A DNA stretch of 64,000 nt, taken from NCBI GenBank assembly GCA_035221665.1, contig CM069136.1, forward strand, positions 40,982,001 to 41,046,000, given 5' to 3'. Position 1 is the first letter of the stretch. Every line of letters begins with the position of its first letter. Shown here piece after piece: positions 8,875 to 63,014 of this stretch. The DNA is from Okamejei kenojei (Eukaryota). Under the pieces are notes generated by a model. That model was not told where the DNA came from. It did no database searches and worked only from the letters and a program-made list of their open reading frames with translations. Made by a program: the position numbers and the translations under genes.

Positions 8875-8970
8875 CAATATTAATCTCATCATCAGTCTCT
8901 GCATCGCCAATGCACTCAAACTGGAAATCCTGCAATGATTGTGAAAACCTCTGAACAGCTGCAGATAAAT
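8875..8970 (-). CDS. ARHGAP42: Coding exon 2 (BAR domain) of a GRAF-family Rho GTPase-activating protein, best match ARHGAP42
   Basis: Minus strand reads polypyrimidine-cag|AT TTA TCT GCA...ATT AAT ATT G|gtaagt; 96 nt, phase 1-1. Translates (N)[31 protein letters not shown](A), nearly identical to the ARHGAP42 segment as I recall it ([33 protein letters not shown]) and closer to it than to OPHN1 or ARHGAP26. Confidence 0.92.
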
Positions 8971-14935: not shown

Positions 14936-16035
14936 CACACAAAGTCATTCACATCAACATCCTTTTTGTTTTGATGCTCGTTTATTGAGCTGATGAAACT
15001 GCAATGTTACAGTTCAATCCCAATCACTGGAAGCACAGAACACATTGTGAGTTTTCCAAACCTTGGTGTAACAAACAATGTGAAATCAAGAGGGTAATAC
15101 AGAGAGAGACTGTAATAATTCCAATCAGCACAATCTAAATCAAGACAGGATCAGCCTCTACACAGGGACTTTCCCACAGTCCGTGTCTGCCCATCACCAC
15201 CACCCCCGTGCCCCTGACGCTTTCTTGTCTACATGTGTGTCAGAGAGATGGCACCAAATGCCCTGGACTGCTGCACCTGTACTGCTGCACCTTTCAACTG
15301 GGATGCCCAACTGTTCCCGGATTTGAGGAAGGGCTCCAACAGAATGGACGAGGAGGGGAGTCAGGTTAAAGAGGGCGGATTTGTCTGTTCTGAGCAGTCC
15401 CTGGGCTTCAGTCAAGGGTCAGTGTGTGGGGCAGTGCCCTGGAGTTTACATCCTTTAGACATCCACCATGGTTCCCCACTCCCCGTCCCTCTCTCAATGT
15501 GTGACGGAGAATGGCCAAGAATATCACTGATTTCGCATCCAATCCTGTAAAATGTGAAGAGTTAAGAGTGTCATATGTCAGTTTAAAGTTGCAGCTTTAC
15601 CATCTGAGATAGAGCACAAAGACGCAGCAGAAATTTGGAAACGTCATCCCGTCACCCATTCCTTCTCTCCAGAGATGCTGCCTGCCTGCTGAGTTAAAGA
15701 GTGCCCACGGTTGACTCACGAGTCACTAAGGTAAACGCACGGGCCACTACGTTATTACAACAAGTTTAAATGTTTTAATTTTTAACTTGAACATTAAATT
15801 TGACTCGTGGAAAACCTCAAACATGTTTGAATTTTTTCAAGAGTTAACAAGTTTCACGGGTACCTGCCGTTATCGCCACAAGTTGCTAAGTTGCGCGTGC
15901 GACTTCCAACGTTCCCGCTACGTTAATTGCATGTGATTACCGCGAGTGAAAACTCGGGATTACTCGTCGGTCGACTCGCACCGTGAGACAGGGGTTTAAT
16001 TTAACAATGCATGAGACAGACCGAGTCATTAAATA

Positions 16036-16171
16036 GGTGATGTTTCGGGTCGAGACCTTCAAGGGTCTCGACCTGAAACGTCACCTATTCCTTCACTCCA
16101 TAGATACTGCCTCACACAGCATTCTTGTCTACCTTCGATTTTTCCAGCATCTGCAGTTCTTTCTTAAACAT
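16036..16171 (+). mobile_element. Penelope-derived fold-back element
   Basis: ggtgatgtttcgggtcgagacc-ttcaag-ggtctcgacctgaaacgtcacc hairpin; flanked by direct repeat gagtc(a/g)ttaaata at 16023-16035 and 16172-16184. Confidence 0.8.
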
Positions 16172-18135: not shown

Positions 18136-18239
18136 TTAGTGAAACTGCAATTGGAGATTTGTGTTCCATTTTAATCACACTGCTATAATAAAGATATTGC
18201 AATTCTGGAAAGTGTGCAGGGAAGATTCACAAGGTTATT

Positions 18240-20180: not shown

Positions 20181-21882
20181 TGGAGGTAACAGATGCACAC
20201 ATGGTTGACAGGACTAGCATTTCCCAAACTTGCAAGTGTATGTTTAATTTCCACATGTTTGGACAATTGTTTGCAGCATGAACAGTAATCCGAAATCGTA
20301 CTTCAGGATTAAAGCAAACAGCACATGTATTAAAATAGACAAAGGTTGTTCTGCCTTTCTTGTTCCTTTTCAGACTTGCCCTGCTCCAGGTCCATTCATA
20401 TGTTATGCTCCAGGAAGTACGAGTCACTGTGATTTAGCTTTTGTGCCAAAAACCACAGCTATGTGCAACTTGTCTATATCAAGTTCAGTCCCATCCATAA
20501 CCATCAGGAGAGCAACCGCATCAAGCCTAAGCAATATGTTAGATGACACAAAATGCTGGAGTAACTCAGCGGGTCAGGATGAGTAAAGGTTCCTGAAGGG
20601 TTCCGACACAAAAACTCACCGATCCATTTTCTCCAGAGATGCTGTCTGACCTGTTGACTTACTCCAGCATTTTGTGTCCATCATTGGTGTAAACCAGCAT
20701 GCAGTTCATTTTTATGACATCGAAGCAATCTGTTATTTACCTGCAATGTTTAGTACTGATTGGGCAGTCAAAGATGAAAAACAATGATGTTCATTAATCT
20801 ACTGCCATGCCCATCATTATCCACACTAATATCTATTGGCAGAAAGGAAGTTGACATCAGCTTAGTCTTCCAAGCATCAGACAATAACTTCCACTAACGT
20901 ACTGTATTCAATTTAATGGCGACTAGGAAAGCAAAGATAGAGAGACATGTTTGGCTCACTGGAGTAGGAGTTGCAGAAATGTTTCAAATGGAAGGTCAAA
21001 TTTGACATTATTGAAATTAAAGTGTATACACTAGTGAATTTGCAGAGGTGGAAAGGTGGGCAAAGGGTAATGTACAACAATACAAAGTTGGTGATCAAAG
21101 TTGGCTCTATTATTAACACAATATAAGCAGTAATTGTGCAAGATAGCAAAATCATAACGTGACTCACCGATGTGTTGGAGTTTATCTCAAAGGTGGGGTT
21201 AAGAGTGATAGGAGGTCAATGAACATAGGGAATTAAGGAATATGTGCTGGTTTTACCAACAACATTGACTTGCTAAAAAGTGAATTAAAAAAAAAATAGA
21301 CTTTAGCAGATCACTGGGCAGAAGAATGAGTAAGAGAATGGCTAAGAGATTGCTGATAATAGGAAACATTCTCCACTGTCTACTATACTTACAGTTTTAG
21401 TGTCATCTGCAAATCTTCTCATATTGTTAATTACATTTTCATCCAAATTATTAATGTATACACCAAACAGCAGTGCGCCCAGCACTTGTGGTCACAAGCA
21501 CCCGATAAGAAGAACCCTCCACAATTCCTCTTCAATTCCTTTCTCCGAGCCAATTTTGAATAGTCGGACATGTGATCTAATCTTCCAGACAAACCTATCA
21601 TGCAGTACCTTTACAAAGGCCTTGCTAAAGTCCATAAAAACAACGTTCACTGCCCTGACCTCATCAATCTTCCTTGTGATCTCTTAAAAAAAATATCTGC
21701 TCTTCTGAAATAGTATTTCCCACATACAAAGTCATGCTGCCTATCCCCAATCCCATGCCTATTCAAATACTGGTAGATCCTGTCTCTAATGATCTCCTCC
21801 GACAATTTACCAACCACTGACTTCTGACTCACCAGCTTGCAATTTCCTGGATTGTCCTTGCTGCCCTTATTAAATAAATCTA

Positions 21883-38607: not shown

Positions 38608-39600
38608 AACATAACCATATAACCATATAACAATTACAGCACTAAAACAGGCCCTCTCGGCCCTTCCAGTCCGTGCCGGCCATTTGTTTTCCCCTAGTCC
38701 CATCTACCTGCACTCAGACCATACCCCTCCATTCCCTTCACGTCCATATACCTATCCACTTTACTTTTAAATGTTAAAATCGATCCTGCCTCCACCACTT
38801 CTGCTGGAAGCTCATTCCACACAGCCACCACCCTCTGAGTAAAGAAGTTCCCCCTCACGTTACCCCTAAATTTCTGTCCCTTAATTCTCATGTCATGCCC
38901 TCTTGTTTGAATCTTCCCTACCCTCAATGGGAAAAGCTTATCCACGTCAACTCTTGTCTATCCCTTTCATCATTTTAAAGACCTCAATCAAGTCCCCCCT
39001 TAACCTTCTGTGCTCCAAAGAATAAAGACCTAACTTGTTCAACCTTTCTCTGTAACATAGTTGCTGGAACTCTGGCAACATTCTAGTAAATCTCCTCTGT
39101 ACTCTCTCTATTTTGTTGACATCCTTCCTATAATTAGGCGACCAAAATTGTACACCATACTCCAGAATTGGTCTTACCAATGCCTTGTACAATTTTAACA
39201 TTACTTCCCTACTCCTATATTCAATGCTCTGATTTATAAAGGCCAGCACACCAAAGGCTTTCTTTACCACCCCATCTACATGCGATTCCACCTTCAGGGA
39301 ACTATGCACAGTTATTCCTAGATCCCTCTGTTCCACAGCATTCCTCAATTCCCTACCATTTACCATGTACGTCCTATTTTGATTTGACCTGCCAAGATGT
39401 AGCACTTCACACTTAACAGCATTAAACTCCATCTGCCATCTTTCAGCCCACTTTTCCAAATGGCCCAAATCTCTCTGTAGACTTTGAAAATCTACTTCAT
39501 TATCCACAACACCACCTATCTTAGTATCATCTGCATACTTACTTATCCAATTTTCCACCCCATCATCCAGATCATTGATGTACATGACAAACAACAGTGG
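38608..39600 (-). mobile_element. CR1 LINE 3' fragment (fairly intact RT C-terminus)
   Basis: ORF 38947-39642 GPLLFVMYINDLD...SKYADDTK...LVRPILEYGVQFWSP; (ATATGGTT)n tail. Confidence 0.95.
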
Positions 39601-40369
39601 ACCCTGTAACATCACCAAGGCCTTCAAACAAGTAATACTCATAAAAGGGTGACATGGTAACTAGTTGATCTGGGGCATGACCAAATTAATGAGCAGGTCC
39701 AGCAGAAAATTTCGAAAATTATAGTTGAAGATAGAGGAAACTACATTTGCACCAAAATGCATATTTGCATAAAAGCTCAATCTTCTGAACTAGTTTGGCT
39801 AAATTATACTAACCCCACAGAAAACGGACGAAAAGAGTTTCTTAAAAATAATCTATTGAATTTTGAAGAAAAAGAAGAAAAGTACCATTACGGTAACTTT
39901 CATGGACTTAAAATGGACAATCATTCTTTTAAATCAGAACTCAATATCATTCTCAAAACCATTGGGCCCAGCATTTTTTATTATAAACGCAAGCTCTACA
40001 TAAATAAATGAAATTTAAATTGGATTGAAGGATTTCCGTGGCCCATATTCCAACATTAAATTTGTTCTTCCATGCATGTAATGTGCCTGCAAATGAATGA
40101 CATTGGACATGCAATTATGTCAAACACCATATAGCAGATACCTACAGGGCTGCTGCAATGCTGGGCTTAGAATTGCCATTGAAAAGTAGTATGGACCATA
40201 TGGAAACATCCTTACATGAGGAACATGAGGTGACATACCAAAGGGGAGATACAAAACTCATGGTAAGCTATGACTTTAGAAAATTGAGGTCAATACATTA
40301 TGGTGTTCCATGGTGATCACTGCTTTTTCTAAGTGTGTGAGGAAGAGGTCTGCGACTATAGACCGTTTA

Positions 40370-40567
40370 AACCGAAGATAGACACTAAATGTTGGAGTCA
40401 TTCAGTAGGACAGGCATTGAGTTCTGACAATGATATAGAGTTCTGAAGAGAAGGAATGGGTGACATTTTGTATCAAATCCTTTCTTCAGCCAGAAGAATC
40501 TTCTTCTTCAGACCTTCTTCAGGTGTCTGAAGAAGGGTCTCGACCTGAAACGTCATCCATTCCTTCC
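40370..40567. mobile_element. Penelope-derived fold-back remnant with an intact hammerhead core at 40527-40554
   Basis: ctgaagaagggtctcgacctgaaacgtc on plus; degenerate inverted arm upstream. Confidence 0.75.
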
Positions 40568-41550
40568 ATATTTATGAATGACTGTTTGCATAGGGTAAAA
40601 AGTATATAATTCGCAGAGGGCAAAAAATGTAGAATTATGGCAAAGATCAATAATAGAATGCAAGTCAACACAGATAACTTGGCTTAAAAGACAGACAAGC
40701 GGTATATGAAATTTGATGCAAGAAGTGTCAAGTGACACACAATAAAGGACACAAGTAAAAATATAGCAGATTATATGACAATATTAGAAACCTGGAATCC
40801 CACATGCATAAATCCTAGAAAGTGACAGAATCATGAGAGTGGTTAGTAAAACTTTGGAATACAGGGATTCATAAATAGAACTATGGGATACAAAAGCTGG
40901 CAGGTTTCAGTGAAGCGGTTCAAAACACTAATTCAGCCATAAATGGACTGTTGCTTCCAATTTGAGTCACGTAACTTTACGAGGTACAAAGATTCTAGAG
41001 AGAGCTGAGGAGAGTTATTTAGGATCAGACATTGATATCAGGCTTCAGGCAAGAGGTACTAAGGGGATGCAAGGAAGAAACATTTAACTTATTTTACTTA
41101 CACGGCCATACACACACCAGTTACTCTCTGGATTTCAATGTGCAAACAGCAGCGGAAAAGAATCAATCTGTGCCATTGAAAGGGAACTAGATTGACACTT
41201 GAGAGAGAATAATTTGCAAAGCTACAGGGAAGAAGGGTCTACCATGGGGCCATAACAAATCACCAACTGCAAAGCTGTCTGCAGTTTTTCTTTTCTCACC
41301 CTACTCTTACATTCAAATGGTCTACATATCAGACGTTTCCCTTCCTTGGCATCTCCACCTCAGGTTAACTACAAACATTCATTTTAAGTCCACCAACTCG
41401 CAAAGCTATCTCAACCACGCCTCCTCTCACCCCGCCTCCGAATAGGACTTCATTCCATTCTCCCACAATGTCTCTGCCAAACACCATGCCAATATAGACA
41501 CTTATCTGCCTACACATAATCCATATTCCTCACTGCATTATCTGTGTGCC

Positions 41551-41985: not shown

Positions 41986-42659
41986 GCCTTTCCAAGTCTT
42001 TTAATGTCTTTAAATTCCACTCTTGTTTCTGCCTCCACCACCACCTTGGAAGAGTGTTTAAAAGACATGCCTTGCACATCTCCTTTAAACCTTGCCCCTC
42101 TCCTTAAAGCTATGCCCTCTAATATTTGATATTTCCATCCTGGGAAAAAAAATTCTGATGATCTACCCCATGCACAAGAATATTTAACAGAATTCTGCAT
42201 GACATCTACTACATTTCACTCCCAGCATCACAAGAAAATCAATAGTTATATTAAGAATCAAAAAAGGTCAGTAAACCTGACACATCATCGTTATTATTAA
42301 CATTTTACAACATAATACTAAAGGTAATACTTTCATGTGCCTAAAATAAAACAAGCTAGTGTCCTTTCAATAAACAATTAAAAGCTTGTTATCTTCTATA
42401 TGTAAAGACAAATGCCAATACTTTGGTGCTCAAGATGTGGAATTACCTGACGGGCTGTTGATTTTATCATCATGAACAAATATTTTGTGTGATTTCAGAA
42501 AAAAGAATGTAACTAATTTGTGCAACTAAGGTGTGATGATGTGTCTCAACCACACACGATTTTTACCTCTTTGACGGTGGCCACCCTGCCATGCTTGTCA
42601 AATATTTGCTAGTACAAAGCTTAGAAGATCCTGTTTCTGATTAACAGAGTGAGGGGTAT

Positions 42660-44050
42660 GTTGAACAATCCATGTTCCAGACGTACACTGGCCGTATCCA
42701 CAAACTCTTTCTCCACTACATCGATGACTGCATCGGGGCTACTTCCTGCACCCATGCAGAACCCATGGACTTCATTCGCTTCAATACCAATTTCCATCCT
42801 GCACTCAAATTCACTTGGACCATCTGCGGCACCTCCCTCCACTTTCTTGCCCTCACCGTCTCCATCACAGGAGATAGACTATCGACTGACGTCTATTATA
42901 AACCTACTGATTCCCACAACTATCTAGATTACACTTCTTCCCACCCTGCCTCCTGCAAAGACTATATCCTCTTCTCCCAATTCCTCCTTCTACACCCAAG
43001 ATGAGGTGTTCCATACCAGGACATCCGAGATGTCCACATTCTTTAGGGAATGGTGGTTCTTCTCTTCTATCATAGATGAGGCCCTCACGAAGGTCTCCTT
43101 GGAATCCCACAGCTACGTGCTTGCTTCCCCTCCCAGTGGCAACACGGAATAGAGTCCTCCTTGTTCTCACCTTGCACCCCTTCAGCCGTCGCATACAATA
43201 CATAATCCTCTGACATTTTCACCACCTCCAACGGGATCCCACCAGTAGCCACATCTTTCCATCTCCACATCTCTCCGCTTTCCACAGAGACCATTCTCTC
43301 CACAACTCGCTGGTTAACTCGTCCCTTCCCACCCAAACCACCCCCTCACCAGGTACCTTCTCCTGCAACCACAGAAGATGCAACACCTGTCCCTATACCT
43401 CCCCCCTTGACTATCCAATGACCCCAACAGTCCTTTCAGGTTAGGCAGAGGTTCATTTGCACCTCCTCCAACCTCTTCTCTGTATCCGCTGTTTCAGGTG
43501 TGATATAGGCAAGACCAAGCGCAGGCTGGGCAGTCGTTTCTTTGAACACCTCCGCTCAGTCCGCCAAAATCTACCCGATCCCCCGGTTGTTAAACACCTT
43601 AACCTCCCCCTCCGTTTCCCACACTGACCTATCTGTCCTGGACTTCCTCCATTGTCAGAGTGAGGCCAAATGCAAATTGAAGGAACAGCACCTCATATTT
43701 CGCTTGGACAGCTTGCACCCCAGCGGCATGAAAGTGATTTCTCTAACTTCTAGTAACCCTTGTATCCCTGCTCTCTCTGTCTCTTCCCCACCCTAGTTGT
43801 TGTACTAGTTTCACACACTGTCTGTATAATTGGCTGTCACCTAGCCCACAGCCAATAATAGTCCATTGTGGACTCCACCTTTCCTTGATCATCATTGCTT
43901 TTTTGCATATATTTAATTCATTTGTTCTATATCTCTCGTTTTCTTTTTCGCTGACTCTCAGTCTGAAGAAGGGTCTCAACTCGAAACATCACCTATTCCT
44001 TTTCTCCAGAGATGCCACCTGACCCGTTGAGTTACTCCAGCATTTCGTGT
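42660..44050 (+). mobile_element. Penelope-like retroelement 3' fragment (RT, GIY-YIG endonuclease, pLTR with hammerhead core)
   Basis: LHYIDDCIG...FHPALKFT...VYYKPTDSHNYLDYTSSHP (Penelope RT); IGKTKRRLGSRFFEHLRSV and EQHLIFRL...PSGM (GIY-YIG); ends ctgaagaagggtctcaactcgaaacatcacctattcc. Confidence 0.9.
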
Positions 44051-44261
44051 CCAGCTGCAGGAAATGACATTTCTCTGCCCCTATCTATTACTAACAAATA
44101 ATCTGTTTCTACGTTTTTTAATGAAACAGTGAGCAGATTTTCAAGAACAATTCCTGCCCTGCTATTAACTTCAATAGTAGTCATAATGTTGTTTTCTGTC
44201 AGGGAATAAAAACATTAAAATGGGACACAAGATGCAGGAGAGCTGAAGGGGTTAAATGGTC

Positions 44262-44824: not shown

Positions 44825-45650
44825 ATTAGCAAAGCAAAAAAAAGGGCAGGGGAGAAACTCAGTGGTTCAGGCAGCACCTGTGGAGGAAAGTGGACAGTTG
44901 ACATTTCAGGTTGAGACCCTTCATTCGGGCTGCAAGAGTAGAGTGGGAGTAGCCAGTATAAGAGATGGAGGAGGAGCATGAGCTTGCAAGCGACAGGTGG
45001 ATACAGGTCGAGGAGCGGTTGACTGATACTGGGAGACATATGGGAAAGCCAATGTTGGAGATAGCAGCAGAGGCTGGGAGGTGATAAGTAGAGAACAAAA
45101 AGCTGAAGATTCTGGAGAGGAAAGTGACGAATGAAACTGAATGAGAAGCGGTGGTGGCAGATGGGAGGAGATGGATTGGAAGGGTGAGCAATTAGGGTCG
45201 GGGAAGGGGATTCAATCAGAAAGTGTGTGTGGTGGAGGGGGGAGAGGAGGAAGAAAAAAACGGGAATATGGAGGTGGCGTCAAGATAGGGAAATGGCTTG
45301 AGAGAAACCACCAGGATAAATAAGAGGAGAAAGGTGCAGTTGAGGTGCAGGTTACCTGAAATTGGAGCATTCAACATTCATTAACTTTGATTATAGACCA
45401 CCCAGGCAGAATACGAGGTGCTATTCTCCTACTTTGCATCTGGTCTAACCCTGGCAGTGGAGGGGGCCCCAGAACAAACGGTACAGTGTGGGAATGTGAC
45501 GGGAATTAAAATGGCCGACAACCAGGTAACCCAGGTCTTGACAGCAAAACACCACCTCATCTGTTTTTGGCCTCACCGATGACGAGGAGGCCACATCAAG
45601 AGCACTAAATACATCAGGCAAGGTTGGAGGAGGTGTAGCTGAAACCCTAC
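44825..45650 (-). mobile_element. Old Penelope-like 3' fragment
   Basis: Reverse complement shows a GIY-YIG tail (cacctcgtattctgcctggg...aatgttgaatgctccaatttc) and a degenerate hammerhead/pLTR at 44850-44930. Confidence 0.7.
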
Positions 45651-48600
45651 CTTAGTAACATTCTGCTAAGGACTTTGTTGTGTTTTTTCTGCATACTTTG
45701 GTTTAGCACTATTACAATCTGATTACCTGGTATTAACAATTAACTCATTCTATTATTGATTAGTGTGTAAATATTTGCCATGTTATTGCATTGATGGCCA
45801 TGTAAAGCTACAGTAAGTAATAGTTTCATTGTTCTAAAAAGCTGCAGCAAGTAAGAATTTAATTGTTCCAGATCATATCTGGTGCAGTGCAGATGACAAA
45901 CGTTCTCGACTCTTATCCATTGTTTGCCTTCACGTAAGTACAGCACAATGCATGCACTGTGTACCATAAAGTACATACAACAATTCGTCTAGGCTTTCTT
46001 ACAAACACGAGAGAAAAACATCAAACTGCACTGCCTAAAAAAAAAGTCTGCAGTTAAAGACAGCAGGGACAGGGGATATGGGAAGATGGCAGGAACGGGG
46101 TACTTATTAGGGATGATCAGCCATGATCACATTGAATGGTGGTGCTAGCTCGAAGGGCCGAATGGCCTACTCCTGCACCTATTGTCTATTACTGGGGATT
46201 CAAATTAACACGCTATGCTCACTTGGAGATTTACATCTAATTTCTAATTTCGCAACTTTGGAGCTACCCACAATAGTATGATTGACATTTCTTCAGCCAG
46301 GCACTCTTTCCAATTAAGATAGCAGATTTTCAATGCCTCAACAGCAATTAACTATAATTAATTCACATTAATCTCCCAGTACTGTCCATTTCCCATGATG
46401 AATTACATATAGATAAATTCAAATCTCCATATTGACACAAATTACTATTATTCTGTTGCCAATTACCTCGGAAATGTTTGAGCACATAAAAAAATACAAA
46501 TACAAATACAAAAAAATAAGCATGTGAATAAGCAAAACAATTTTCTACATCTAATCAACATCTAAATATCACTGATGATTATTTGCTCGTCGCAGCATTT
46601 TGTCATTATGTGCTTGCATTTGCCTGTCCTACGAGTTGCCAGAGGATACAGCCACATTGGAAAATTATTGTTCACTGGTCTTGGAGAGTTTACAAAAAAA
46701 TCTTAAAGGAATGCCACAGGCACTAGGTCTAGATAGCCGAACTTCATTCAGCAATGATACACAAAAGGCAATAGTGAGGCCAGGTTGCTGACCACAATAG
46801 GATGAGATTTTCACAGTGGAGGAATGTACACAGTCATCCGGAGACAGAACGAATAGCAGGTTTTTCTTTCCCCACAGATTTACGTTACATTCCTTTGGGC
46901 TTGGTATTAATGTCACCAAAGCCTCAAAGTACTGGTCAACAGAGGACCCAAGGCTGCAGTGACTCTAGTCTCTGCCAAAATAAAAATCTCAAACACAATC
47001 CAAAACTCCTGGTCTACTGGACAGCAGATTTTCCCGCTTGGAATGTGTAGGAACTGTAGATGCTGAAGAAGGGCCTCGACATGAAACGTCGCCCATTCCT
47101 TCTCTCCAGAGATACTGCCTGTCCGGCTGAGTTATCCAGTTTTTTGTAGTATCCATCTTCCCACTTGGAATACTTGCTGCACTTGCAAGAAAGCACTAAT
47201 GATGCCGTGGAACAATCCTCCACATCCACTGTCAGGATAAGCCAACCAATGTCAATATCTACTCTCTTGCCAACTTCTTCACCAGCAAGGTTCTATCTGC
47301 ACTCAGCCAGCTCCAATGGACAGGCTTTGCCTGCCTGATTCTGAATTCCCAAAACAGTCTCTCTACCTCAAACTCTTATCTCGGCAAGAGGTGTTCTCAA
47401 AGCTCTCTTGAAATAACCTCACAAAACCAAGAGAATCCTGGCCTATGACCGATCAAAATGGAGGAGGAGCATTCATGATGGCACTGACAACCTAACGCTG
47501 AGAACCTAACGCTGAGAAGCCCAACAGGAAGAGCAGATAGAGACCACCACCCTCCACACTACTCACGACACCTCCTGTCGCATCTGCAGTAGTCCGTGGA
47601 TTCCCACAAATGCCTTCTCCCACACACTGGACTCCTCACTGATTGTCCAAAGCAAAGACCAAGAGCCAACTATGTGAGAGTGGATGGCAGCAACATTGTC
47701 CAGCACATGACACAGGTTTTGGGTGACTGACTGCTGCGTGGACTTGCTGGCCCAGAGATGTTTTCAGTATCGGCGATGAATATCGTCGAATATCAAATGG
47801 AAGATGGTTGGTTCTCTTTCTAGTTGTAAATAGCTATTGCCAGACACTTATGTGATTTGAAATGTTATTTAGTACTTACTAGTCTAAATTTACAGGTTGA
47901 CAATATTTGCTACATGTGCACATTGTCTATTTCATTTTCTGAATTTTTGGAACTGATCACTGCATCATCAGTGAACATCTGCACTTCTGATGATACTTTT
48001 GAGTGAAGGCCATTGATGATTGGACCTTTGACACTGAAGATAGTTGAGCCTTGGACACGGTCCTGAAGAATCACAGCAGCAACATGCAGGGGTTAATTTA
48101 ATAGATCTCAAACAACTACAAACATTTCACAAATGCAAATCAACCATATGCAGCAAAAAAATCTGAAATAAGGTGCAAAATATGCAGGGGTGCTCAGAAA
48201 GCTTTGCACCATTTACCTTATTGAAAGTGGACCTAAGCTGCTTGCCCACAAACTATATCTGGAATTCTAGCAAGTCACAGTCATGACTTCTTACTGGATC
48301 CTTAACCACGAGATCTTGTTCTAATCCCATCCCATTACAAGTGCTCAAATCTAAAATCAATTGTTCCCAGGTAGATTCCAAAACATTCTCTTCTACAGGG
48401 GGTGGGGTGAGAGGTTTGGAAGAAATTAGCAGGTCAGGCAGCATCTGTGGATAGATTACGTTTTGGGTCAGGACCATTGTTCACTAGTCAGAAAAAAATA
48501 TCCCAGCCACACTCTACAAATTCCTTTACCATGGTACAATGGCCAGTGTGATTCGAACACATTAACAGATAAAAATCACCCATGATAATTACAATTGCCT

Positions 48601-48802
48601 TATTATATTCTTCTGACATTTCATGTGTTTTTGTCCTATCGAGAAGAAACAATTTGAGGAGTTTCAATCTATTCCCATGCATGTCTTCTTCACACTGCCA
48701 TTCATTATTTTCAACCAAATAAATTTAACATCACTGTGCACTACATCCAAGCCATCACTCAACACTGCATTTATTTCATATTCAACACAGTATTGATCAT
48801 CT

Positions 48803-49022
48803 GGGTTACACAAAAAGCTGGAGAAACTCAGCGGGTGCAACAGCATCTAAGGAGCGAAGGAGATAGGCGATGTTTCGGGTCGAGACCCTTCTCCAGTCTG
48901 AAGAAGGGTCTCGACCCGAAACGTCGCCTATCTCCTTCGCTCCTTAGATGCTGCTGCACCCGCTGAGTTTCTCCAGCTTTTTGTGTACCCTCGATTCTCC
49001 AGCATCTGCAGTTCCTTCTTTA
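48803..49022. mobile_element. Complete Penelope-derived fold-back element with 16-bp TSD
   Basis: ~92-bp near-perfect inverted arms centred at ~48896, then a 3' tail; acagtattgatcatct duplicated at 48787-48802 and 49023-49038. Confidence 0.92.
48898..48925 (+). ncRNA. Minimal hammerhead ribozyme core
   Basis: CUGAAGA-A-GGGU(CUCG)ACCC-GAAA-CGUC: CUGANGA box, stem II, GAAA box, loopless ACGU palindrome, GUC cleavage triplet. Confidence 0.75.
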
Positions 49023-50527
49023 ACAGTATTGATCATCTACTTGATTAACAATGCTAATAATCATCTTTCACCTTAAGCCTGAAAAGCATAATGATGTAGA
49101 ACAATAAGCTCCCAGGATGGTGACCCTGCAAGCATGCCTGGTTAACACTGTTCGATCGCACACATTTGTTCTTACTATCTCTTGTTACCAAGGCTACATG
49201 CATTCAGGCAACGAGCTTAAATCTTTGTCATTTTACAACTTTCAAATTTCTTCCGATTTCATTTTCTGCCACTATTTTTCTGATATTTTTATTCTCCTCC
49301 CAGTCATGCCTCGATTGTCATTCTCTTTATTCTGTGCCACCACTTCTTTATGGTTTATAAAGTTTCCTGTTACTGGAAACATTCCCCACCCCCCACACTA
49401 ATAAGGCTCGCAGAGAAACTGCCCGTGTTTCAGAACAATTTTGCTTTCTGAAGCAACATCAATCTTTGTTTGTGCCGGTAGGGATTTGGCCCATGGCAAA
49501 TTTTACACTTTATTCCCATCGACTTCAATTTCACAAGGAATCTTTGAGGACACATTCATTCAAATGTTCTCTTGATATCAAAAGTGGTCATACTACCCTT
49601 GCACTGAAATCTATCTGCCTTGCCCATGCACCAAGAGCCAGAACTCTGTGGTCCTGGCCAAATACAAATTGAACATCAGTGACTAGATAATTGGCCAGAT
49701 GGAAGATTTCACCTTCCGTCTAGACAGTTGCACCCCTTGGGACTCAGAAATGAATTTAACAATTTCAGGTAACCACTCTATCTTCCTCTTTCTCTTTCTC
49801 TTTCTTCCTCCACAGATTTGGCTATACCTTAGTTTCATTTTATATCTTGATTTCATTTCTGCCACTTACTGCTGGAATTTAAAGTAATTGATACTTTGAT
49901 AATTTTGGTCAACACCCGATCACAGACATACTTACTGTTCCCTCCATGCCTTCCCCCTCTCTGCAATTTAAAACACACTTGGTTTCTCATCTTTCCAGTT
50001 CTGATAAAGAATACTTCACCCGACTATTAACCATTTCTTTTCCTACAGATGCAACCTGCTAATTGCATCCAGTTTTTGTTTTTGCATTAATTACCGTGGG
50101 ATCTACCTTGCATCAGTTCCCTGCAGATTGATCATTGGTGATGCACTGGACGAATTCTAGGTGATTCTTATCCCCTACCCCATATCTCAAATGATTCAAC
50201 TCCTGGCTGCCCACAGTTTTCAGCCATCCGCAAGGTGCAAGTCAGCTCTCTAAATGAGTACAACACTCAAGAAAACTCAACACTATCCATGTTAATCAAA
50301 CACGTGGCGCAATGTGCGTTGGAAATATATCACCTAATCTTCATTGTAGTTGAATCAAAGACACAATGGTGCTCCAAAGACAACAGCCGATTACAGAGCA
50401 AACTCATTAATAACTTCTCAAGAACAATTAGTATTGGGCAATTATTGCTGGTCTCACAAAAGTCCATATTCAATTGTTGAACAGAAATAAAGTAGCCACC
50501 AATTTCCTATTGTTACAGGAGTGTTCA

Positions 50528-50865: not shown

Positions 50866-52439
50866 TGGTTGTGAAACACATTTGCGGGACAGAAAGGAAA
50901 AACTTGGTTGACACATACCTGACTTAGTTTGAAAAATAGAAAAACTTTAATAAGTGTTACACATGATCATAATAGGATTTATTACATATTGCTTACAGAT
51001 ACATATAGGTGATACCGATAAAATTGTCGAAACTGTATACAATTTAGCTTTCAGCAAGGAAAAAAAATCAAAATGCCACTTGTAACATAAATGTTTTAGG
51101 ATATCACTGATGTTTAGCCCCTGATTTTACTTCGGAGTCGGGTATGCCGCATGCGCACCAGTACGTCAGCCGCATTGACGCACGGAGGCTGCGAGGATCA
51201 GAGCTCCTCCAGCGGTAAGTATGCAGACTCCAGGTAAGTTTTTAAAAACTTTTTCTGGAGTTCGAGTCCGTGCTGGCTGGTACGCTATACCGAGTGCTGG
51301 CATGGAAAAAACAGGGAAGGGAAAGCGGCAAGGATCAAGCAGCAGCGGCAGCTCAGGCTTGGAAGCCCTGCCTTATACCCCTGTTCAGTCGCTAGCACAG
51401 CACAGAGCCGCCGCCATTAGGGCGCAAGGAGTCGGGGGAGTCTTCGGTTTGATTCCTCACCGGGGCTGGATAGAGTGTGTACACGCCTATCCCAAGTAGA
51501 GGAGCTGTTGCATACAGTCCTCCAAAGAACTTCACTCCAAGATTAGTGAGTGGCAGCGCTCAGAGAAAGAAGCGCCAGCAGTGCTGCCAGAAAACCCTTT
51601 TCATTTTGAAGGGAGTACAATGGGTCAGGGCAGTCCTGAGCCCGAATCTGATGGGGAAGTTCAGCCAGAAGAAACAGTAGAATTACCAGATGTTCCACCA
51701 CTGGCAGTTCCATTTGCTGTACCATCAGGAGCAGGTGAGCCACTAGGTGAAGAGCTGGCTACCACAATAAATTACATGGTGTCTCATCAGCTCCAGGAGC
51801 TTACTATGGATGAGACAGCCAAAAAAACATGAGCCTCCAAGCAACTGTGAGTTGTTAAGAGTTCCAACTGTGAATCAAGTTATATGGGGCCAAATGGGAC
51901 CCGGCATGCGAAGTCAAGAGATTAAAATCCAGAGAATTTTAAAGTTATTGGCTGCTGGCATTACAGCATTTGCAAGAACAATGGATGGTGGTTTTGTGAC
52001 CAGAACACACCAAGAGGGTCTAGGGTTGTTATGTAACACCCATTTCGAGATCAATTGTCTCAGGAAAAGGGCTATAGGCCCACCATTAATCCCAGATATG
52101 CTTCGCTTTGCAAACCAGCAAATATTCAACCACCTGATCTACTGTTTGGTGCAGATCTTACCAAACAGGTCAAAGAAATAAATGAAGATGCAAAAACAAT
52201 GAGCTTGATGAGACCAATGATGCACGGCAGACAGCTGAAGAGAAAGTATCCTTATAGAACCACCTCAGCATCCGGGGCTACACCAGGGACAAGTCGGTCC
52301 TCAGCGCAGGGGCGTGGATGGTATCCTTCGGCTGGAGCACGAGCAACCATGGGGGCTACTGCCAGACGCTGGAGTCAGCAGGGTGCATCAGTTACCAGAG
52401 AGGTAAGTGGACCTGGTTCTCATAAAAACATATTAATTG

Positions 52440-53844
52440 TAACACAGGAAAAAGTTGGTGGTAGATTACAGCTTTTTTATAACGAATGGAAGCAGCTTAC
52501 TTCAGATCTGTTTATTAGGAGTGTGATTCAAGGGTTTCAAATTGAATTCATTACAAATGGTGATTTACCTTTCCAACATGTTCCTAGTAGAACACTTTAT
52601 TTTCACACACAGAAGTAATGGAGGTTCAAGCTGAACTCTCAAAATTATGGAACAAAGGTGTAATTGAGAAAACAGTTCAACAAGTCCATCAATTTGTGTT
52701 AAATATTTTTCCCTGCCCTAAAAAGTATGGAGGATGCAGAATAATTTTGCATCTGACAAAATTAAATCCATTTGTACTCGACAGACATTTCAAAATGGAA
52801 ACGCTGGTTACGGCCAAGCAACTAATTTCCAGACGTTGTTATATGGCAACCATTGATCTGAAAGATGCGTATTATTCAGTGCCTGCTCATTGCGAGCATA
52901 GAAGGTATTTCAAATTCATTTGGATGAATCAATTATGGCAGTTTAAGGCACTGCCAAATGGATTAACCTCAGCTCCTAGAGTATTCACTAAGTTGTTAAA
53001 ACCAATTTTTGGACTACTTAGAGGTCAGGGCCATGTGATTATGGCTTATTTGGATGATATTTTGATAATTGGGCAAACAAAAGAAATAGCTGAAACATCA
53101 GTGGCAATTGTCAAAACCACATTTGAAAGGTTGGGGTTTATCATTCATTTGGGTAAATCCAAATTAACACCAATTACAACAATTATTTTTTTGGGGTTCT
53201 CAATTGACTAAATTAAAATGGTAATTTCTTTGCCCAGGGGAAAAAGTACAGAGCTAATTGAGGATTGTTTAAAGCTTTTAAACCAGCATAAACCTTCAAT
53301 TAGACAAGTTGATAGGTCCATGCAATTATCAGCAGAAGCAATTACTGATATTTTATGGTGGTTCCAACATGTCTCCAGTAGTTTCAACACAGCTGTGCTA
53401 GAACAACCTTCCATGGTCTTACAGACTGATGTCAGTGCACTTGGGTGGGGTGCCACAGACACAAATTCAAGTTGTGGAGGAAGATGGAGTATGGAAGAAG
53501 CGTTGCTTCTGCAGACATGGGGAATTAATCATTTGGAGCTTTTAGGAGCATTTTATGGGCTCAAAGCTTATTGTTCTAACAAACGCAGTCTGCACGTTCA
53601 GCTCCAAATTGATAACACCACGGCAGTCGCATATGTTAATCACATGGGTGGTATCAAGTCGGTATCTTGTGATAGACTGGCAAACCAAATCTGGATCTGG
53701 TGTATTGACAAACACATCTGGCTCTCAGTTATTTATCTGCCAGGGAAATTTAATACTGTGGCAGGCTCCAGGTCACGAAAGTTCCATGACAACATTGAGT
53801 GGATGTTGAATCAATATGTGTTCAAAGAGATCATTGTCAAATAA
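52440..53844 (+). pseudogene. DIRS reverse transcriptase / RNase H (frameshifts, stops, internal deletion)
   Basis: VGGRLQLF, HFKME, IDLKDAYYSVP, ALPNGLTSAPRVFTK, AYLDDILI; RNase H QTDVSALGWG, INHLELLGA, IDNTTAVAYVNHMGG. Confidence 0.93.
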
Positions 53845-54133
53845 TGGTACGCCAGATGTCGACTTGTTTGCATCTAGGCTAAACCACCAGCTTCCCAAAT
53901 ATGTATCATGGGAACCAGATCCTGGCGCAGTAGCGATTGACGCTTTCTCGCTGAATTGGGGTGGTATGTATATATATGCATTTCCTCCATTTTGCCTCAT
54001 AAATCGATGTCTGCTTAAAATCAAGCAGGACAATGCTTCAGGAGTACTGGTGATACCCGACTGGCCTACCCAGCCATGGTACCCTTTGATTCTACAGCTG
54101 ATGACACAACCCCTGATGGCTGTTCCCAAATGA
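53816..54133 (+). pseudogene. DIRS DNA N6-adenine methyltransferase-like domain
   Basis: DVDLFASRLN...DAFSLNW...YAFPPF...PDWPTQPWYP, the standard DIRS MT-like domain. Confidence 0.88.
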
Positions 54134-54201
54134 AGGGATTTATTGGTGCATCCAGTAACAGGCGAATGCCATCCATTATATGACCGTATTGATTTGTTAA
54201 T

Positions 54202-55182
54202 TTGCAGATTCTAAGAAGGCCATATCTGGGGCATGGATTGTCGGGGCGTACTGTGGATATGCTTACTGCATCTTGGAGATCGAGTACTCAAAAGCAGTAT
54301 TTTTGTTATGTAAAAAAATGGGAAGCTTATTGTATACAAAATGATATTGACTATTGTACAGCAAGTGTCTCACATGTTTTGGAGTTTTTGTCAACCCTCT
54401 ACTATGATGAAGGATTAAGTTATAGTGCAATCAATACAGAAATAAGTACTTTGTGATCATATTTAGGGATGAAGTCAGACAAACAGTCGATTGGGTCTCA
54501 CCCTTTTGTTGTTCGATTGATGAAGGGCATTTTTAATTCCAGACCTCCCAAACCTAGATATATGGCTATTTGGGATGTGAGTATGGTCCTTAGAATGCTA
54601 CGTCAGTGGGTTCCTATCTCATCTTTGTCTTTGACCAAAATCACCATGAAGGTGGCCATGCTTATGGCGTTGGTTTCAGCACAAAGGGTACAGTAGTTAC
54701 AAAAATTACAGTTAGGCAGAATGGAAACTGCTGCAAACAACATTATGTTTTACATTTATGACCTCCTCAAGCAAAGTAGGCCAGGTGTCACACGGTTTAA
54801 AATAGTATTTTCAGCATATCCCACGGATCCATCCTTTTGCCTAAAAACACATTTGATGCAATACATTGCAGCTACAGAGGCCTTACGTAACAGGGAGATG
54901 GGATTGTTTATCAGTTATAAAAAACCACATAAGAGAGTGCCAGTTAACACTATTTCAAGATGGCTGAAACAAGTTTTGATTGATGCAGGTATTAACACGG
55001 ATGTGTTTACATCTCATTCCACTAGGGCAGCAGCTACATCGGCGGCCAAAGTGAAGGTCATGCCCGTCGACCACATTATGGCGGCCGCCGGATGGGCAAA
55101 TGAGCTGATGTTTCAGAATTTTTATCATCGGCCAATTGTCAATCCAGGACTGTTTGCCAATGCTATTCTAAGTTCTGTTTAA
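54202..55182 (+). pseudogene. DIRS tyrosine recombinase (in-frame stops)
   Basis: SWRSSTQKQY, PPKPRY..IWDV, LMALVSAQRVQ, FTSHSTRAAATS, AAGW...FQNFY catalytic motifs. Confidence 0.93.
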
Positions 55183-56289
55183 GTACCTAAATTTAAGGGG
55201 TACTGTCGTTTGTTTACATTGTTAAATAAACCCTATTACTACATTGAATGCAATGTTACTACTAATGCATTTATTTCTCTTTCGAGTCAATCAATGCAGC
55301 GGGATGCCGAAATTTGTAATCTGCGGCATGAAATCACAAAGCTTTGAACTCTTCACGGAATCACTCACGTGACTCCGAAGTAAAATAGTAAGAATAAACG
55401 AGAAATTACCAGTTCGAAGTTTGATCTTGATTTTATGAGGAGTTACGTTGGTGATTACATGCCCGCCACGCCCAAATCTCTCTCACAAAAGATCATACGG
55501 TAGTTCTCGAGTCACTGATCTTACTATGTACTTCGGTGTTGTTTATTTGTGATTTCATACCGCTGCTTTGAAGTTTGGTGCGCATGCGGCCTGGCGGGTC
55601 TTCTTCACGTAATCATCAACATAACTCCTCATAAAATCAAGATCAAACTTTAACTGGTAAGTTCTCGTTTAATCTTACTATTGATGAGCTCAAAATGTGC
55701 TGAAAATCACAAGAATCCCATGTAGTTTTATATAACCTTTTTAACTTTGTTTACTTAGTTTCAAATGAATCTTAGCATAACAAATGTAATATTCAACACA
55801 ACATCCAATCCATAATCAATATTCAATGCATCTTAAATAACAGCCAGGGGATTTAGAACCTCTTCTGAAAGAGAAAGGTGAGCCAGCTGTTATTTGGCAT
55901 CCAGAGCAACTCTGACAGAAACCTTCGCATAGCAGAGACATTTGTACACATTAAAGAAAAATACAACTCAGAAAACTGAGATTCACATAATACAACTCAT
56001 TCAATTCCTCGCTAATTAAAAAATTGACATAAGTGTCGCATGTTCAAAATCAAAACTGAATTTCCTATGGTTAAATGTTCTCTTTTTTTAAACAATTTCT
56101 TTATCTGCTTGTACTTTCAGTAGTATTGTTAATGCTTTATGAGAAACTGAAGTAAATGGAAAGTAAAATTAAGCCGTTGTGCAATTACCCATAGCCAGCT
56201 CTAAATGACAAATTGATATTAAGGAATGGAAGTCACAGTCAATTTAATGATTGTTTACACCATCACCAGTTCCCCAACTTAATAGGTCA

Positions 56290-58545: not shown

Positions 58546-58989
58546 CAGGAATGCAACATTTACAAATTCCCTTTCATTTCAGTGAATGTGATTTGTTTGT
58601 TCTCCATCTGTTATAAATGTAGTTCAATACTCCCCGCAGTTTGGATGTGATCATTTTTCATTGTGAAATTTTGACTTTGTAGGGCATATGGAAAAAAGAC
58701 GTTTAAGACAAGTTATTAGGAAGGATAAATAGTCTGTGTTTAACCAGAAGTCTTTTAAAAAAAGAAAAGAGATGTGAAAGGCAAGGTGCACAAAGAGGGT
58801 AAAGTATCAGTGGATCAAAAGTCATTACAAGTCAAATTCAAACGATCACACTGATTGTACCAAGCTAGTATTGGAAAGTTATGCTGGTGAAATGGCTGTG
58901 CCAAATTAAAAGGGATTGGACATTAATTGAGTAAATGCTACATCAACACAAGAGAATACAATGCAGGAATGAGTGGGTTAACATATGAT

Positions 58990-59484
58990 GAGCGTTTGTA
59001 TCAACGGGTCGATGGTGGATAGGGTCAAGAACTTCAAATTCCCGGACGTGCATATTTCCGAATATCTCTCATGGTCCCAGAACTCTGATGCAATCATAAA
59101 GAAAGCACATCAGCGCCTCTACTTCCTGAGAGGATTACGGAGAGTCAGTATGTCAAGGAGCACTCTCTCAAACTTCTACAGGTGCACAGTAGAGAGCATG
59201 TTGACCGGTTGCATAGTGGCTTGGTTCGGCAACCTGAGCGTCCAGGAGCGGAAAAGGCTGCAAAAAGTTGTAAACACTGCCCAGTCCATCATCGGCTCTG
59301 ACCTCCCTACCATTGAGGGGATCTATAGCAGGTGCTGTCTCAAAAAGGCTACCAGCATCATCAAGGACCCACGCCATCCTGGCCACACGCTCGTCTCTCT
59401 GCTGCCATCAGGTAGAAAGTACAGGAGCCTGAAATCTGCAACATCCAGGTTCAGGAACTGCTTCTTCACCACAGCCATCAGACT
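58990..59484 (+). mobile_element. Rex1/Babar LINE fragment, cut at its 3' end by a DIRS insertion
   Basis: KKAHQRLYFLR...FYRCTVESMLTGCIVAWFGN...HPGH...LLPSGRKYRS...RFRNCFF. Confidence 0.9.
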
Positions 59485-60389
59485 ATTTTACTTCGGAGTC
59501 ACGTGAGTGACTACGTGAAAAAGCCCCGCCAGGCGCATGCGCGTCATTACGTCGACGCATGTCGCATTGAACGGAGCTGGAGAGCGCAGCTCCACCAGCG
59601 GTAAGTAGAAAACCTCGCAGGTAAGTGTTTAAAACTTTCCAGCGAGACTTAAGCTCCGTAAGGCTGGCTTGTGAGTCAGCAGGAGCCTGTGGTACAGTAG
59701 GAGGAGCAAGCGTGGGTCACGCAGCATTGCGGTCCCATCGCAGCGATCGGGAAAATAGATAAGTGCGGTGCCGGTTCCAATACCGGTGGACGTTATTCCG
59801 TAGTTAATAACCCTCCAGCTGCTCTAGAGTCGCACGGGCTGAGGCCCCAACGATAGGGAAGCATACAAGGTTTGCTCTGAGTATGTGTTATCAGATGCTG
59901 TTTGCTTAGTTTGATGCGTATGATCTGTGTGATACTGAGATTAATACAAATATTCTGCAAGCAGAATGTGCCTGTCAGAATCTATAATTCTAAACATGAA
60001 CATATATGGTTTATGCACAAATACACAAGAAAATGTAAAATAAAGTAACTCTCCTCCAAGAGAGGACAAGAATGTGGGGGAGACTAGAAATGGAGAAAAT
60101 GCTGCACACTTTACTCAGTCAAGGGTCCAAAGACCCAAAGATTCCCAGGCAGCCTCCGAAGGAGTTCCATACACTGTGTATGGTGCCTGTTAAAAATGGG
60201 AATCTGACTTTCCAGTGCCTTGTTAGGTCTGGATGAGGTCTCCCTAGAGCAAGACTAAAATGCTCCAAACTTTAATCAGTCAAAGGTCCAAAGACCCAGA
60301 GATTCCCAGGCAGCCTCCGAAGGAGTTCCATACACTGAGTATGCATACCTGCCAACTTGTGAGATTGAAAAATCGGAATCCTATTAGTC

Positions 60390-60520
60390 TGACGTCAGTG
60401 AGGGCGGGGCACATGACGTCAGTAAGGGGCGGGGCAGGTGACGTCAGTTAAGGGGCGGGGCAAGTGACGTCAGTAAGGGGCGGGGTACGTGACGTCAGTG
60501 AGGGCGGGAAAGTGACCTCA
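60390..60520 (+). promoter_or_regulatory. ~25-bp tandem array, each unit a full CRE (TGACGTCA) plus GC box
   Basis: TGACGTCA at 60390, 60414, 60439, 60465, 60490 and TGACCTCA at 60513; the first five are each followed by gggcggg. The motifs are certain, the function is untested. Confidence 0.6.
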
Positions 60521-60523
60521 GGG

Positions 60524-60745
60524 GGGTTACACAAAATGCTGGAGAAACTCAGCGGGTGCAGCAGCATCTAAGGAGCGAAGGAGATAGGCGACGTTTCGGG
60601 TCGAGACCCTTCTCAGTCTGAAGAAGGGTCTCGACCCAAAACGTCGCCTATCTCCTTCGCTCCTTAGATGCTGCTGCACCGCTGAGTTTCTCCAGCATTT
60701 TGTGTAACCCTCGATTCTCCAGCATCTGCAGTTTCTTCGTCAACT
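60524..60745. mobile_element. Penelope-derived fold-back element, near-identical to 48803-49022
   Basis: Same inverted arms and tcgattctccagcatctgcagtt tail. Confidence 0.92.
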
Positions 60746-63014
60746 CTCAGTTTGTGAGTGTTGACGAAGAGGCGGGAACGGGCTGGCCCCGACCCGACCT
60801 GACGCGCTCGCGGTCACTCACACGGGCTGACAGACCCGGCGGGCGGCGGCGGCAGCGGCGCTGAGGTGAGGTGACCGGTGAGTGTTGCCCGTCTGGGCCG
60901 GACCGGACCATCTCTCCCTGCCCCCTCATCGCCTCTTCCCTGCCCCTGAAGTGATAATGAACGTATTTGGCTTACTACCCCACGGGATGATCGTTGATTT
61001 CCCCCTCTCCACCCTCCTCCCCGGTGCCCACCTGACTCGCACCTACTTCTCCCCTGCGCTTCTGAGTCTAGACGCTCCAGCCGTTCCATCCCAATTCCGA
61101 TTTTTTTGTCTCAATATTCCGAGAAAAAAAATCGGAAAAAAAACACATAGAAAGTTTCTGTGTGTTTTTTTTTTCCGATTTTTTTTCTCGGAATATTGAG
61201 ACAAAAAATCGGAATTCGGAATTGGGATGGAAAAATCGGAAGAATTCCGCCCAAATCGGAATGGTTGGCAGGTATGAGTATGGTGCCTGTTAAAAAATGG
61301 GAATCTGACTCTCCAGTGCCTTGTTTAGGTCTGGATGAGGTCTCCCTAGAGCAAGACTTGGGAGGAGACTGACCCTGAAACTGGTGTCCCTACTTATGTG
61401 TATACACCAGAGCACAAGAGCCATGCTCCGGGTGTTCTCGATGTAGCATCAAGTTTTGAGGCTATGGATGAGACCTGGCTGCCAACATTATTTGGTTTCA
61501 CACCTGCTCCAAGAAACTGTTATGATTGAAACAGTAAAAGATATATAAAACACCCGTCTATTGTGCCTCGCTCAGGGTGCCAACAGTAAACTCAGTAATT
61601 TGGGCACCCATGAGTGTAACGATGCGAGGGCAGGAAATGTGTTTCCAGCATGTCCTTTAGCTGATATCAGTTGGCATCACTGCATTTGGGGAAGACATAC
61701 AAGGATCGATAATATCCAAAACGTATAAAGACATGCTTGCGTTACTCTGCAATGCCTATTCGAACCTAATTGTATGATGATAAATTGCCATTTGGCCAAC
61801 ATTCTACCCAAAAAAAAAATGCAGGACTATGTAGGGCAAACAAGAACCAAATTATTGTTAAAAATCTGCCAAAACATTTCAGGATATTTGCCTTATAAAA
61901 CTGCTCATCCCTGCTCTGAGAAAACAAGCAGGTTGAATACGAAGGGGGTTGATTCTGGGAGACCAGCAGAGGCAGGGAGATGGGTACAAAGTATTATACA
62001 CAATACAACCCACATCAACCCTTATATTGGGAGAAGGAGATCTTCTAGTTAATTTACGGAGGTACTCGAACTTCATTCCATCACAGATAGAACTTCTGGG
62101 GTACAACCTCTGGTTGGGTGTAAGATTACAATTGTTTTATAATGAATGATGCTGCATAATATTTGATTGCTTTGGTGTTTGCTGCACCAGAAACTCGTCA
62201 GGTAGAAAATATATTCCCAGACAGAAGAAGATGGGGGTTGCAGAGTCATTCTGGACCTCACAAACTTTAATTCATATGTTCAGTATAGGCATTTTTAAAC
62301 AAGTACACTTTCAACTCTGTAACGCAGTTGTTATCACAAGGCTGCCATATGGCTACTATAGACCTAAAAAAGATACCTTATTATTCAGTACCAATTCATC
62401 ATTATCGCAGGTACTTTAAATTAATTGGATGGGTCAGCTGAGGCAATTAAAGAATTACCTAATGGGTTAACTTCAGCTCTCAGGCTGTTCACAAAATTAT
62501 TGAAACCAGCACTGGTGTTACTGAGGGCTCAGAATCACATTGTAATGGCATATCTAGAGGATATGTTAATTGTAAATGCCACTCAGGAGACAGCTGAAGA
62601 ACTGGTTTCAGCAACCATAAGCCTATTTGAAAGGCTAGGGTTTCTGTCCATCCAACAACATCTAAGTTACAGCCATCCCAAACATTTGATTATTTGGGGT
62701 TTGTCATTAATTCAGTTGATATGTCAGTAACTTGCTAACAGATAAGGTTGGATATATTACAAATGCCTGTACTTGTCTCGCTGAGAGACCTTATCCCTCC
62801 ATCCGAGAAGTAGCTACAGGTATTGGTAAAATGGTAGCAGCATTTCTGCTGTCGAGTTTGGACCTCTGCATTATCGAAGTCTGCAAAGAGCCAGAAGACA
62901 AGCACTAAAAATAAAAATATTTAAATTTTAAAAAATAATAATAATAATTTTTTTTGTTTTAAAGCGTGCATGTCATTTGATAGGTCCCATGCAGTTTTTT
63001 GTTTTTTTTTAAAT

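Follow-up and report, generated by a model that had tools for sequence, protein, structure and literature searches.

A fold-back insertion with hammerhead cores in Okamejei kenojei is probably the end repeat of a Penelope-like element with an inverted arm made at insertion

What kind of element leaves two copies of a hammerhead motif head to head, in an insert of about 220 bp without genes? Such an insert occupies positions 48787 to 49038 of a 64,000-nucleotide stretch of Okamejei kenojei DNA, called the window here. The initial annotation read it as a member of a discrete, non-autonomous, ambisense and retrozyme-like family with ribozymes on both strands. We examined its anatomy, its source, its relatives in the window and in public contigs, and the ways in which its two halves may have come together.

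The inverted arms (48799-48896 and 48898-48995) are 94-98 nt long, 94% complementary and separated by a spacer of 1 nt, and they meet at the hammerhead box as first described. The element proper starts at 48803, and the mirrored part extends to 48990. With lengths of ~95 and ~128 nt, the arms together make the whole ~220-bp insert, from which coding sequence is absent. The predicted fold of the insert has an energy of -188.3 kcal/mol (z -22.7), equalled by 0 of 200 shuffles. The flanking target-site duplication (TSD), also reported as perfect, is identical at 16 of 16 positions (48787-48802 and 49023-49038); its score was attained by none of 150 random window pairs, and the 16-mer was found just twice in the window. 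The parts of the locus are listed below, where pLTR denotes the end repeat of a Penelope-like element (PLE) and copy 2 a second fold-back copy.

48787..48802, + strand: left target-site duplication, 16 bp, by pair comparison
48803..48892, - strand: inverted, tail-less pLTR arm, putatively the second cDNA
48869..48896, - strand: mirror of the hammerhead core, broken (CUGGAGA; GAAACAUC), with no stem I pair
48893..48897, no strand: head-to-head junction at a small palindrome around T48897, 1 base longer than that of copy 2
48894..48990, + strand: direct pLTR arm; over 93 nt it shares 80.6% identity with the pLTR that follows the PLE coding remnant
48898..48925, + strand: minimal type I hammerhead core (CUGAAGA, extra A, 4-5-bp stem II, GAAA, palindromic ACGU, GUC site) with a stem I of 2 bp
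48991..49022, + strand: PLE "tail", 32 nt, on one arm only
49023..49038, + strand: right target-site duplication, 16 bp, from whose first base the apparent empty site matches

The 220-bp insert has no RT-EN reading frame of its own, and tblastn with 8 PLE proteins gave no match at the locus. An Rfam search of the insert returned 0 matches at the gathering threshold, as did exact-pattern scans of viral, metagenome and prokaryote-genome contigs. Identity as a Pol III SINE was rejected, the A and B boxes on the inverted strand being a one-mismatch pair at chance level (likewise found in 69 and 87 of 1000 shuffles).

Contigs of related organisms bear on the age of the insertion. In organisms B (X6) and C (X9), contigs of 1,864 and 1,943 nt match from exactly 49023 and carry 352 and 393 other letters, respectively, before that point. 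This start of the match suggests an empty orthologous site in both organisms. The flank match of organism F (X16) starts only at 49041, and the flank contig of organism A (X4), which may be the source of the assembly, starts inside the tail and has 0 differences in 478. Because 9 of 458 letters differ between the flanks of A and B, the insertion would be younger than about 2% divergence. Given the apparent empty site in two related organisms, the locus is likely to be a real, young insertion. The claim that it inserted as one unit is upheld by the TSD and the apparent empty site in B and C, which point to retrotransposition.

The following remnants elsewhere in the window identify the source of the arm.

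42654..43765, + strand: decayed, 5'-truncated Neptune-type PLE coding region (RT YIDD, thumb, CxxxxCxxC linker and GIY-YIG remnant)
43959..44056, + strand: tail-less pLTR of the decayed PLE, with a hammerhead core at 43963, ~200 nt behind the coding region

The arm of the insert is 80.6% identical to the arm at 43959-44050. Because the latter follows RT and GIY-YIG remnants, the insert arm is, judged by this likeness, the pLTR of a Neptune-type PLE. PLE identity of the decayed pieces comes from homolog search and tblastn, Pfam having matched none of the three. The RT fragment of the window is closest to ray and skate proteins (68-73% identity), then to sharks, and the coding remnant aligns in order to RT + GIY-YIG proteins of 800-890 residues. 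Both RVT_1 and GIY-YIG scored in 3/4 of these proteins, GIY-YIG below the cut-off. The linker of the remnant reads CNHRRCNTC. A CX2-5CxxC linker before a C-terminal GIY-YIG marks Neptune or Nematis (PMC8557442), so the name Neptune rests on the linker plus the vertebrate host. With 80% identity in the arm, the remnant at 42.6-43.8 kb did not itself give rise to the young copy, and a full-length PLE belonging to the young subfamily was not seen.

Two decayed PLE 3' ends face each other in this region (42654-44056 on the + strand, 44851-45643 on the - strand). An older arm at 44927 (-) lies 535 nt behind a weak GIY-YIG match (E 1e-4), and a further PLE thumb fragment is present at 41326-41499. 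The C-terminus of P0011, a zebra shark predicted protein, resembles the read-through translation of the pLTR core region (43747-44022), a likeness that suggests the same pLTR position behind shark PLEs.

PLE insertions are described as an inverted tail-less pLTR, a direct pLTR, a 30-40-bp tail and a TSD, with palindromes present at their junctions (PMC3846280, PMC8557442). The insert is thus a short PLE insertion of a known type, as inverted ends that carry a tail and a hammerhead are known from PLEs; in butterflies, mention is made of short, non-autonomous Penelope elements (PMC6685494). We consider it probable that the locus is a short, recent insertion of a Neptune-type PLE pLTR whose inverted half was made at insertion, not copied from a palindromic master.

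Beyond this anatomy and the homology to PLE ends, the window displays two preferred 3' ends, clustered 5' ends and variable left arms. About 15 pieces related to the pLTR arm occur in its 64 kb. Counted from the first C of the hammerhead core (+n), arms mostly end at ~+90-96 (both left arms, 43963, 17580, 30493, 47063 and 20545) or at ~+122-126 (both right arms, 4309, 8095, 16061 and 20595); the 40365 and 32045 arms end within the tail. At the other end, 9 of the 11 direct arms that include the core begin at the core edge, the other two extend further into PLE sequence, and no arm is truncated inside the 200-nt region upstream. Six pieces are two-arm insertions, including the insert itself (copy 1) and copy 2. 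The other four are as follows.

16033..16171, + strand: two-arm insertion whose left arm is short (+11 to +35), with a TSD-like repeat of 13-16 bp
20545..20722, + strand: two-arm insertion with a tail-less left arm to +57, filler, a tailed right arm and a 13-bp TSD-like repeat
40365..40566, + strand: two-arm insertion with a stuttered centre and a truncated right arm
47049..47154, + strand: two-arm insertion made of an inverted tail piece and a tail-less direct arm, with a 14-17-bp TSD-like repeat

TSD-like repeats of 13-17 bp flank three of these four, each with a score attained by 3 of 150 random pairs. The direct arms of all six two-arm copies start at about -4 to +8, and the inner ends of their left arms lie at +2, +5, +5, +11, +57 and ~+98. 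The left arm of the 16033 copy begins at neither tail site. At the centre of 40365-40566, short pieces of the hammerhead 5' edge are repeated several times, as repeated priming would leave. A 64-nt inverted pair (14189-14255 / 15631-15696; 94%, 1,375 nt apart) includes pLTR positions ~+26 to +73 and possibly represents the termini of another element built from the pLTR.

The initial annotation had argued from matching boundaries, in particular a shared left end, to a special, discrete family. This argument is weak. According to PMC11167929, two fixed RT start sites define PLE ends, and any two fold-back copies therefore tend to share their left end. The left end common to copies 1 and 2 is the tail-less site, which makes a special family unnecessary, and the left arms of the six two-arm copies stop at different inner positions.

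The second full palindrome allows a closer comparison.

60524..60738, + strand: second fold-back copy (copy 2), 95% identical, with no TSD and no intact core, inside a 933-bp element bounded by terminal inverted repeats

Copy 2 (60524-~60738) was reported as near-identical to copy 1, and its left end, its tail and its identity of 95% agree with that description. No TSD was found at its ends, neither core is intact (the plus core lacks the G of GAAA, the minus core one base of CUGA), and its centre is one base shorter than that of copy 1. A discrete palindromic family, in which whole transcripts (hairpins of ~220 nt) of one or a few fold-back masters are inserted anew by the PLE protein in trans, the hammerhead being incidental, would explain the identity, the same ends and the near-same centre of copies 1 and 2, and pLTRs alone can drive integration in trans according to PMC3846280. 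We nevertheless regard such a family as unlikely. In a letter-by-letter comparison that covers two full palindromes only, none of the five arm-to-arm asymmetries outside the centre is common to copies 1 and 2, the centres differ, and the arms of each copy carry a private variant. Moreover, the left arms differ in four of the window's six two-arm copies, and RT would need to copy through a duplex of -188 kcal/mol. At 48978, both arms of copy 1 have T and both arms of copy 2 have A; T, A and C are all common there in contigs, and the agreement is weak evidence, its chance occurrence in both copies being about 0.13 by our estimate. Homogenisation of the arms could also have erased inherited asymmetries. 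With n=2, the comparison of arms favours an inverted arm made at each insertion. Against an arm made at insertion stand the near-same centre of copies 1 and 2 and the observation that near-full palindromes look common, as a discrete family also predicts.

The abundance of such palindromes was assessed in public contigs, with 48880-49480 as the reference (4 of 24 runs listed, likeness 85). Between 76,964 and 96,475 contigs per run match the pLTR family in the four organisms, each of which thus harbours a very large family; contig depths added up over a run do not measure copy number. In organism A, loose 5' ends at 48894, 48895 and 48896 were found in at least 713, 406 and 438 contigs, respectively, and the results for B and C were similar; such counts favour unique flanks, and the cluster is partly forced by the reference, which becomes the inverted arm left of 48894. 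The flanks of these loose ends are long and of low agreement (0.31-0.39). If contig copies were still attached to their native upstream sequence, a clear consensus would be expected; one is seen just partly, at 48894. Per run, 1,165-1,374 contigs run past the reference ends, presumably nearly all into the inverted arm, so that more than 1,100 appear to cross such a centre in each of the four organisms. This suggests that similar palindrome centres are common, and it counts for whole-element copying from a palindromic family as much as for a junction hotspot.

A T variant at 48944, present in copies 1 and 2, accounts for about two thirds of the summed depth in A, B and C and for under a tenth in F, which reads as a subfamily burst after organism F split off. 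Of the family first proposed, the lack of a protein, the great abundance and the preferred boundaries stand, while the attributes "ambisense" and "retrozyme-like" are not supported. What survives is a very abundant unit of ~95-125 nt with 5' ends clustered at the hammerhead edge. Our literature search found no description of this pLTR family in cartilaginous fish; it may already be catalogued in repeat databases, which were outside the search scope.

The surroundings of copy 2 raise the question of an origin at the DNA level. Copy 2 is contained in a 933-bp element (60344-61276) whose 13-bp terminal inverted repeats are perfect and which is flanked by a 6-bp duplication; the element sits in one unit of a 161-bp tandem duplication (60096-61358). 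It also includes five TGACGTCA motifs accompanied by GC boxes (60390-60508), a stretch rich in CpG and another palindrome (61084-61232). The element could spread copy 2 as a passenger. Two other readings of copy 2, as a host-promoter insertion and as cargo of a split-direct-repeat element, were dropped for that of a TIR-bounded element in a tandem duplication. A MITE-like fold-back DNA transposon, or a repair-made inverted duplication of a single-arm copy, arising after or apart from retrotransposition, would fit the position of copy 2 inside a TIR-bounded element and its lack of a TSD. Such an origin is very improbable for the palindrome: in copy 1, the two arms together with the one-sided tail lie inside the 16-bp TSD, the left end coincides with the tail boundary of the family, as in 20545 and the single-arm copies, and the arm is a PLE pLTR.

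Both palindromes are probably situated within a long intron of a GRAF-type gene on the minus strand. A minus-strand exon of 96 nt at 8875-8970 has good splice sites and matches BAR_3 positions 49-75 (E 4e-4, below the curated cut-off); it is likely exon 2 of a gene of the GRAF/ARHGAP42 type, with the remainder of the window probably intronic. A search of the window with four motifs did not locate the exon upstream of it, and the ORF at 1896-2312 was rejected as a host exon, having no homolog. Read-through from the host could form an editable duplex of ~95 bp. The suggested cleavage of host pre-mRNA is unlikely, as the probable host gene is on the minus strand, where only the broken core is in sense.

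The window also contains a DIRS-like element (51500-55460) with RT and tyrosine recombinase by Pfam and many stops, a second RT fragment (62425-62730), a GC-rich degenerate minisatellite with open frames on both strands (10976-11500) and LINE-like fragments (18143-18906, 27459-28159, 33614-34471, 38947-39660 and 58982-59506).

We then considered whether the hammerheads could be at work in this element. The plus core of copy 1 (CUGAAGA-A-stem II-GAAACGUC) has intact boxes and its minus core is a mutated mirror, both as described. The core was correctly recognised as minimal, being of the minimal PLE type, and the weakness of stem I is confirmed: it has 2 bp on the plus strand and 0 bp on the minus strand, and it exceeds 2 bp at none of the 14 core-like sites in the window. 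In predicted folds, forcing a hammerhead-like core costs 28.9-39.2 kcal/mol in all four full-length strands, versus 6.4 in a single arm, and the probability of stem II in the full element rounds to 0. Short segments around five cores gave neither a hammerhead fold nor a better fold than shuffles (z -0.54 to 1.00). Conservation is 0.86-0.94 in the core boxes versus 0.83-0.84 downstream, in a small set of 9 of 16 aligned arms (those spanning the core) that mixes subfamilies. A 5' end as left by hammerhead cleavage (+29) is absent among the best-supported loose contig ends listed. The hammerhead is thus predicted to be a passenger of the pLTR that does not fold at this locus and is probably silent.

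These results weigh on the reading as a retrozyme-like, ambisense element in which RNAs of either polarity are cleaved by the two hammerheads via dimers or circles. The intact plus boxes of copy 1 are in its favour, as are the weak cleavage, as dimers, of minimal PLE hammerheads (PMC4209133; the dimer requirement is reviewed in PMC6765202) and the head-to-tail joints of 38, 93 and 124 nt seen at low counts in pLTR-family contigs, which show that same-strand tandems occur elsewhere. However, the minus core is merely the mirror of the plus core and is broken in both copies, the plus core is also broken in copy 2, and both cores lie in a ~95-bp duplex that would bury them. One transcript has one sense core, and therefore no dimer can form in cis. 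Retrozymes are same-strand tandem repeats (PMC7229834; 10.64898/2026.07.22.740005), and a same-strand tandem hammerhead pair is absent from the locus. We hold this reading to be very improbable.

A pyrimidine tract and CAG directly precede the hammerhead in both native contexts (43930-43962; 44927-44950 on the - strand), resembling a splice acceptor. In Drosophila virilis, Penelope has a 2-bp helix I and an intron that ends at the hammerhead 5' edge (PMC4209133). Speculatively, a spliced form might complete stem I.

How might the inverted arm be made at insertion? The RT/GIY-YIG protein of the element would nick the two strands of the target at sites 16 bp from each other. From one nick, cDNA synthesis would be primed at an outer start site, yielding an arm with the 32-nt tail, and from the other at an inner start site, yielding a tail-less arm. 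Both cDNAs would stop near the hammerhead 5' edge, at which the RNA may begin or RT may stall, and we infer that the two would be joined via the small self-complementary sequence around T48897, leaving a head-to-head palindrome within the TSD. Either the upstream pLTR within a full PLE RNA or a short transcript of its own may have served as template. Snap-back self-priming, as in PMC3846280, could take the place of the second primer; that work favoured self-priming on an antisense template over two primers. In Anolis, a PLE protein cuts and extends both target strands, its RT starts at two sites bounding the tail, the hammerhead is dispensable for insertion in vitro, and no RNA-seq ends are reported at its cut site (PMC11167929). 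These mechanism papers concern other PLE clades. We found no literature on twin priming in PLEs, with most subscription journals and supplements outside the scope of the search.

We propose more tentatively, as a possibility less likely than the insertion model itself, that rays and skates harbour a recently active, very high-copy PLE derivative of ~125 nt that begins at the hammerhead 5' edge, retains the catalytic boxes with a stem I of no more than 2 bp and is made into a near-perfect hairpin by two RTs that prime at opposite nicks, one at each tail site. If so, thousands of young, TSD-flanked products with datable empty sites would provide a natural experiment on the inverted ends of PLEs, and the ~125-nt derivative would contribute much intronic double-stranded RNA. 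It is not settled whether inverted PLE ends come about by self-priming (PMC3846280) or by two start sites with extension of both strands (PMC11167929). The family offers many minimal young products, and their centres and arm variants can tell apart two-primer joining, snap-back and copying of the whole element. The locus also carries a warning: mirror hammerhead cores in such palindromes are no evidence of ambisense ribozymes.

Among known systems, animal non-LTR retrozymes are likewise short, non-coding and PLE-derived, with a type I hammerhead and long TSDs when present (PMC7229834; 10.64898/2026.07.22.740005). They are head-to-tail repeats that release circular RNA, whereas the arrangement here is head-to-head at both loci, with one sense core per strand. 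The cores share with the minimal hammerheads of PLE pLTRs (PMC4209133) the extra base between 9 and 10.1, the G10.1-C11.1 pair and the palindromic 15.2-16.2. Helix II has 4-5 bp and helix I 2 bp, versus 7-8 and 4-5 bp in the Schistosoma families (PMC4209133). Opposite-strand hammerhead pairs 100-700 bp apart were already noted in Schistosoma (PMC4209133); unlike those hammerheads, the two cores here overlap at the centre of a near-perfect hairpin.

The Poseidon element PAc of Anolis (PMC11167929) is similar in its two RT start sites around the tail, roughly 100-150 nt behind the hammerhead, and in the cutting and extension of both target strands. It belongs to another clade and host, and that report does not address the joining of an inverted arm. 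The EN+ PLE insertions (PMC3846280, PMC8557442) share the inverted tail-less pLTR, the direct pLTR, the one-sided tail of ~31 bp, the TSD, the palindrome at the junction and the hammerhead in the pLTR. The insert described here differs from them in carrying no coding sequence and in its TSD of 16 bp, compared with the 8-10 bp cited for rotifer copies.
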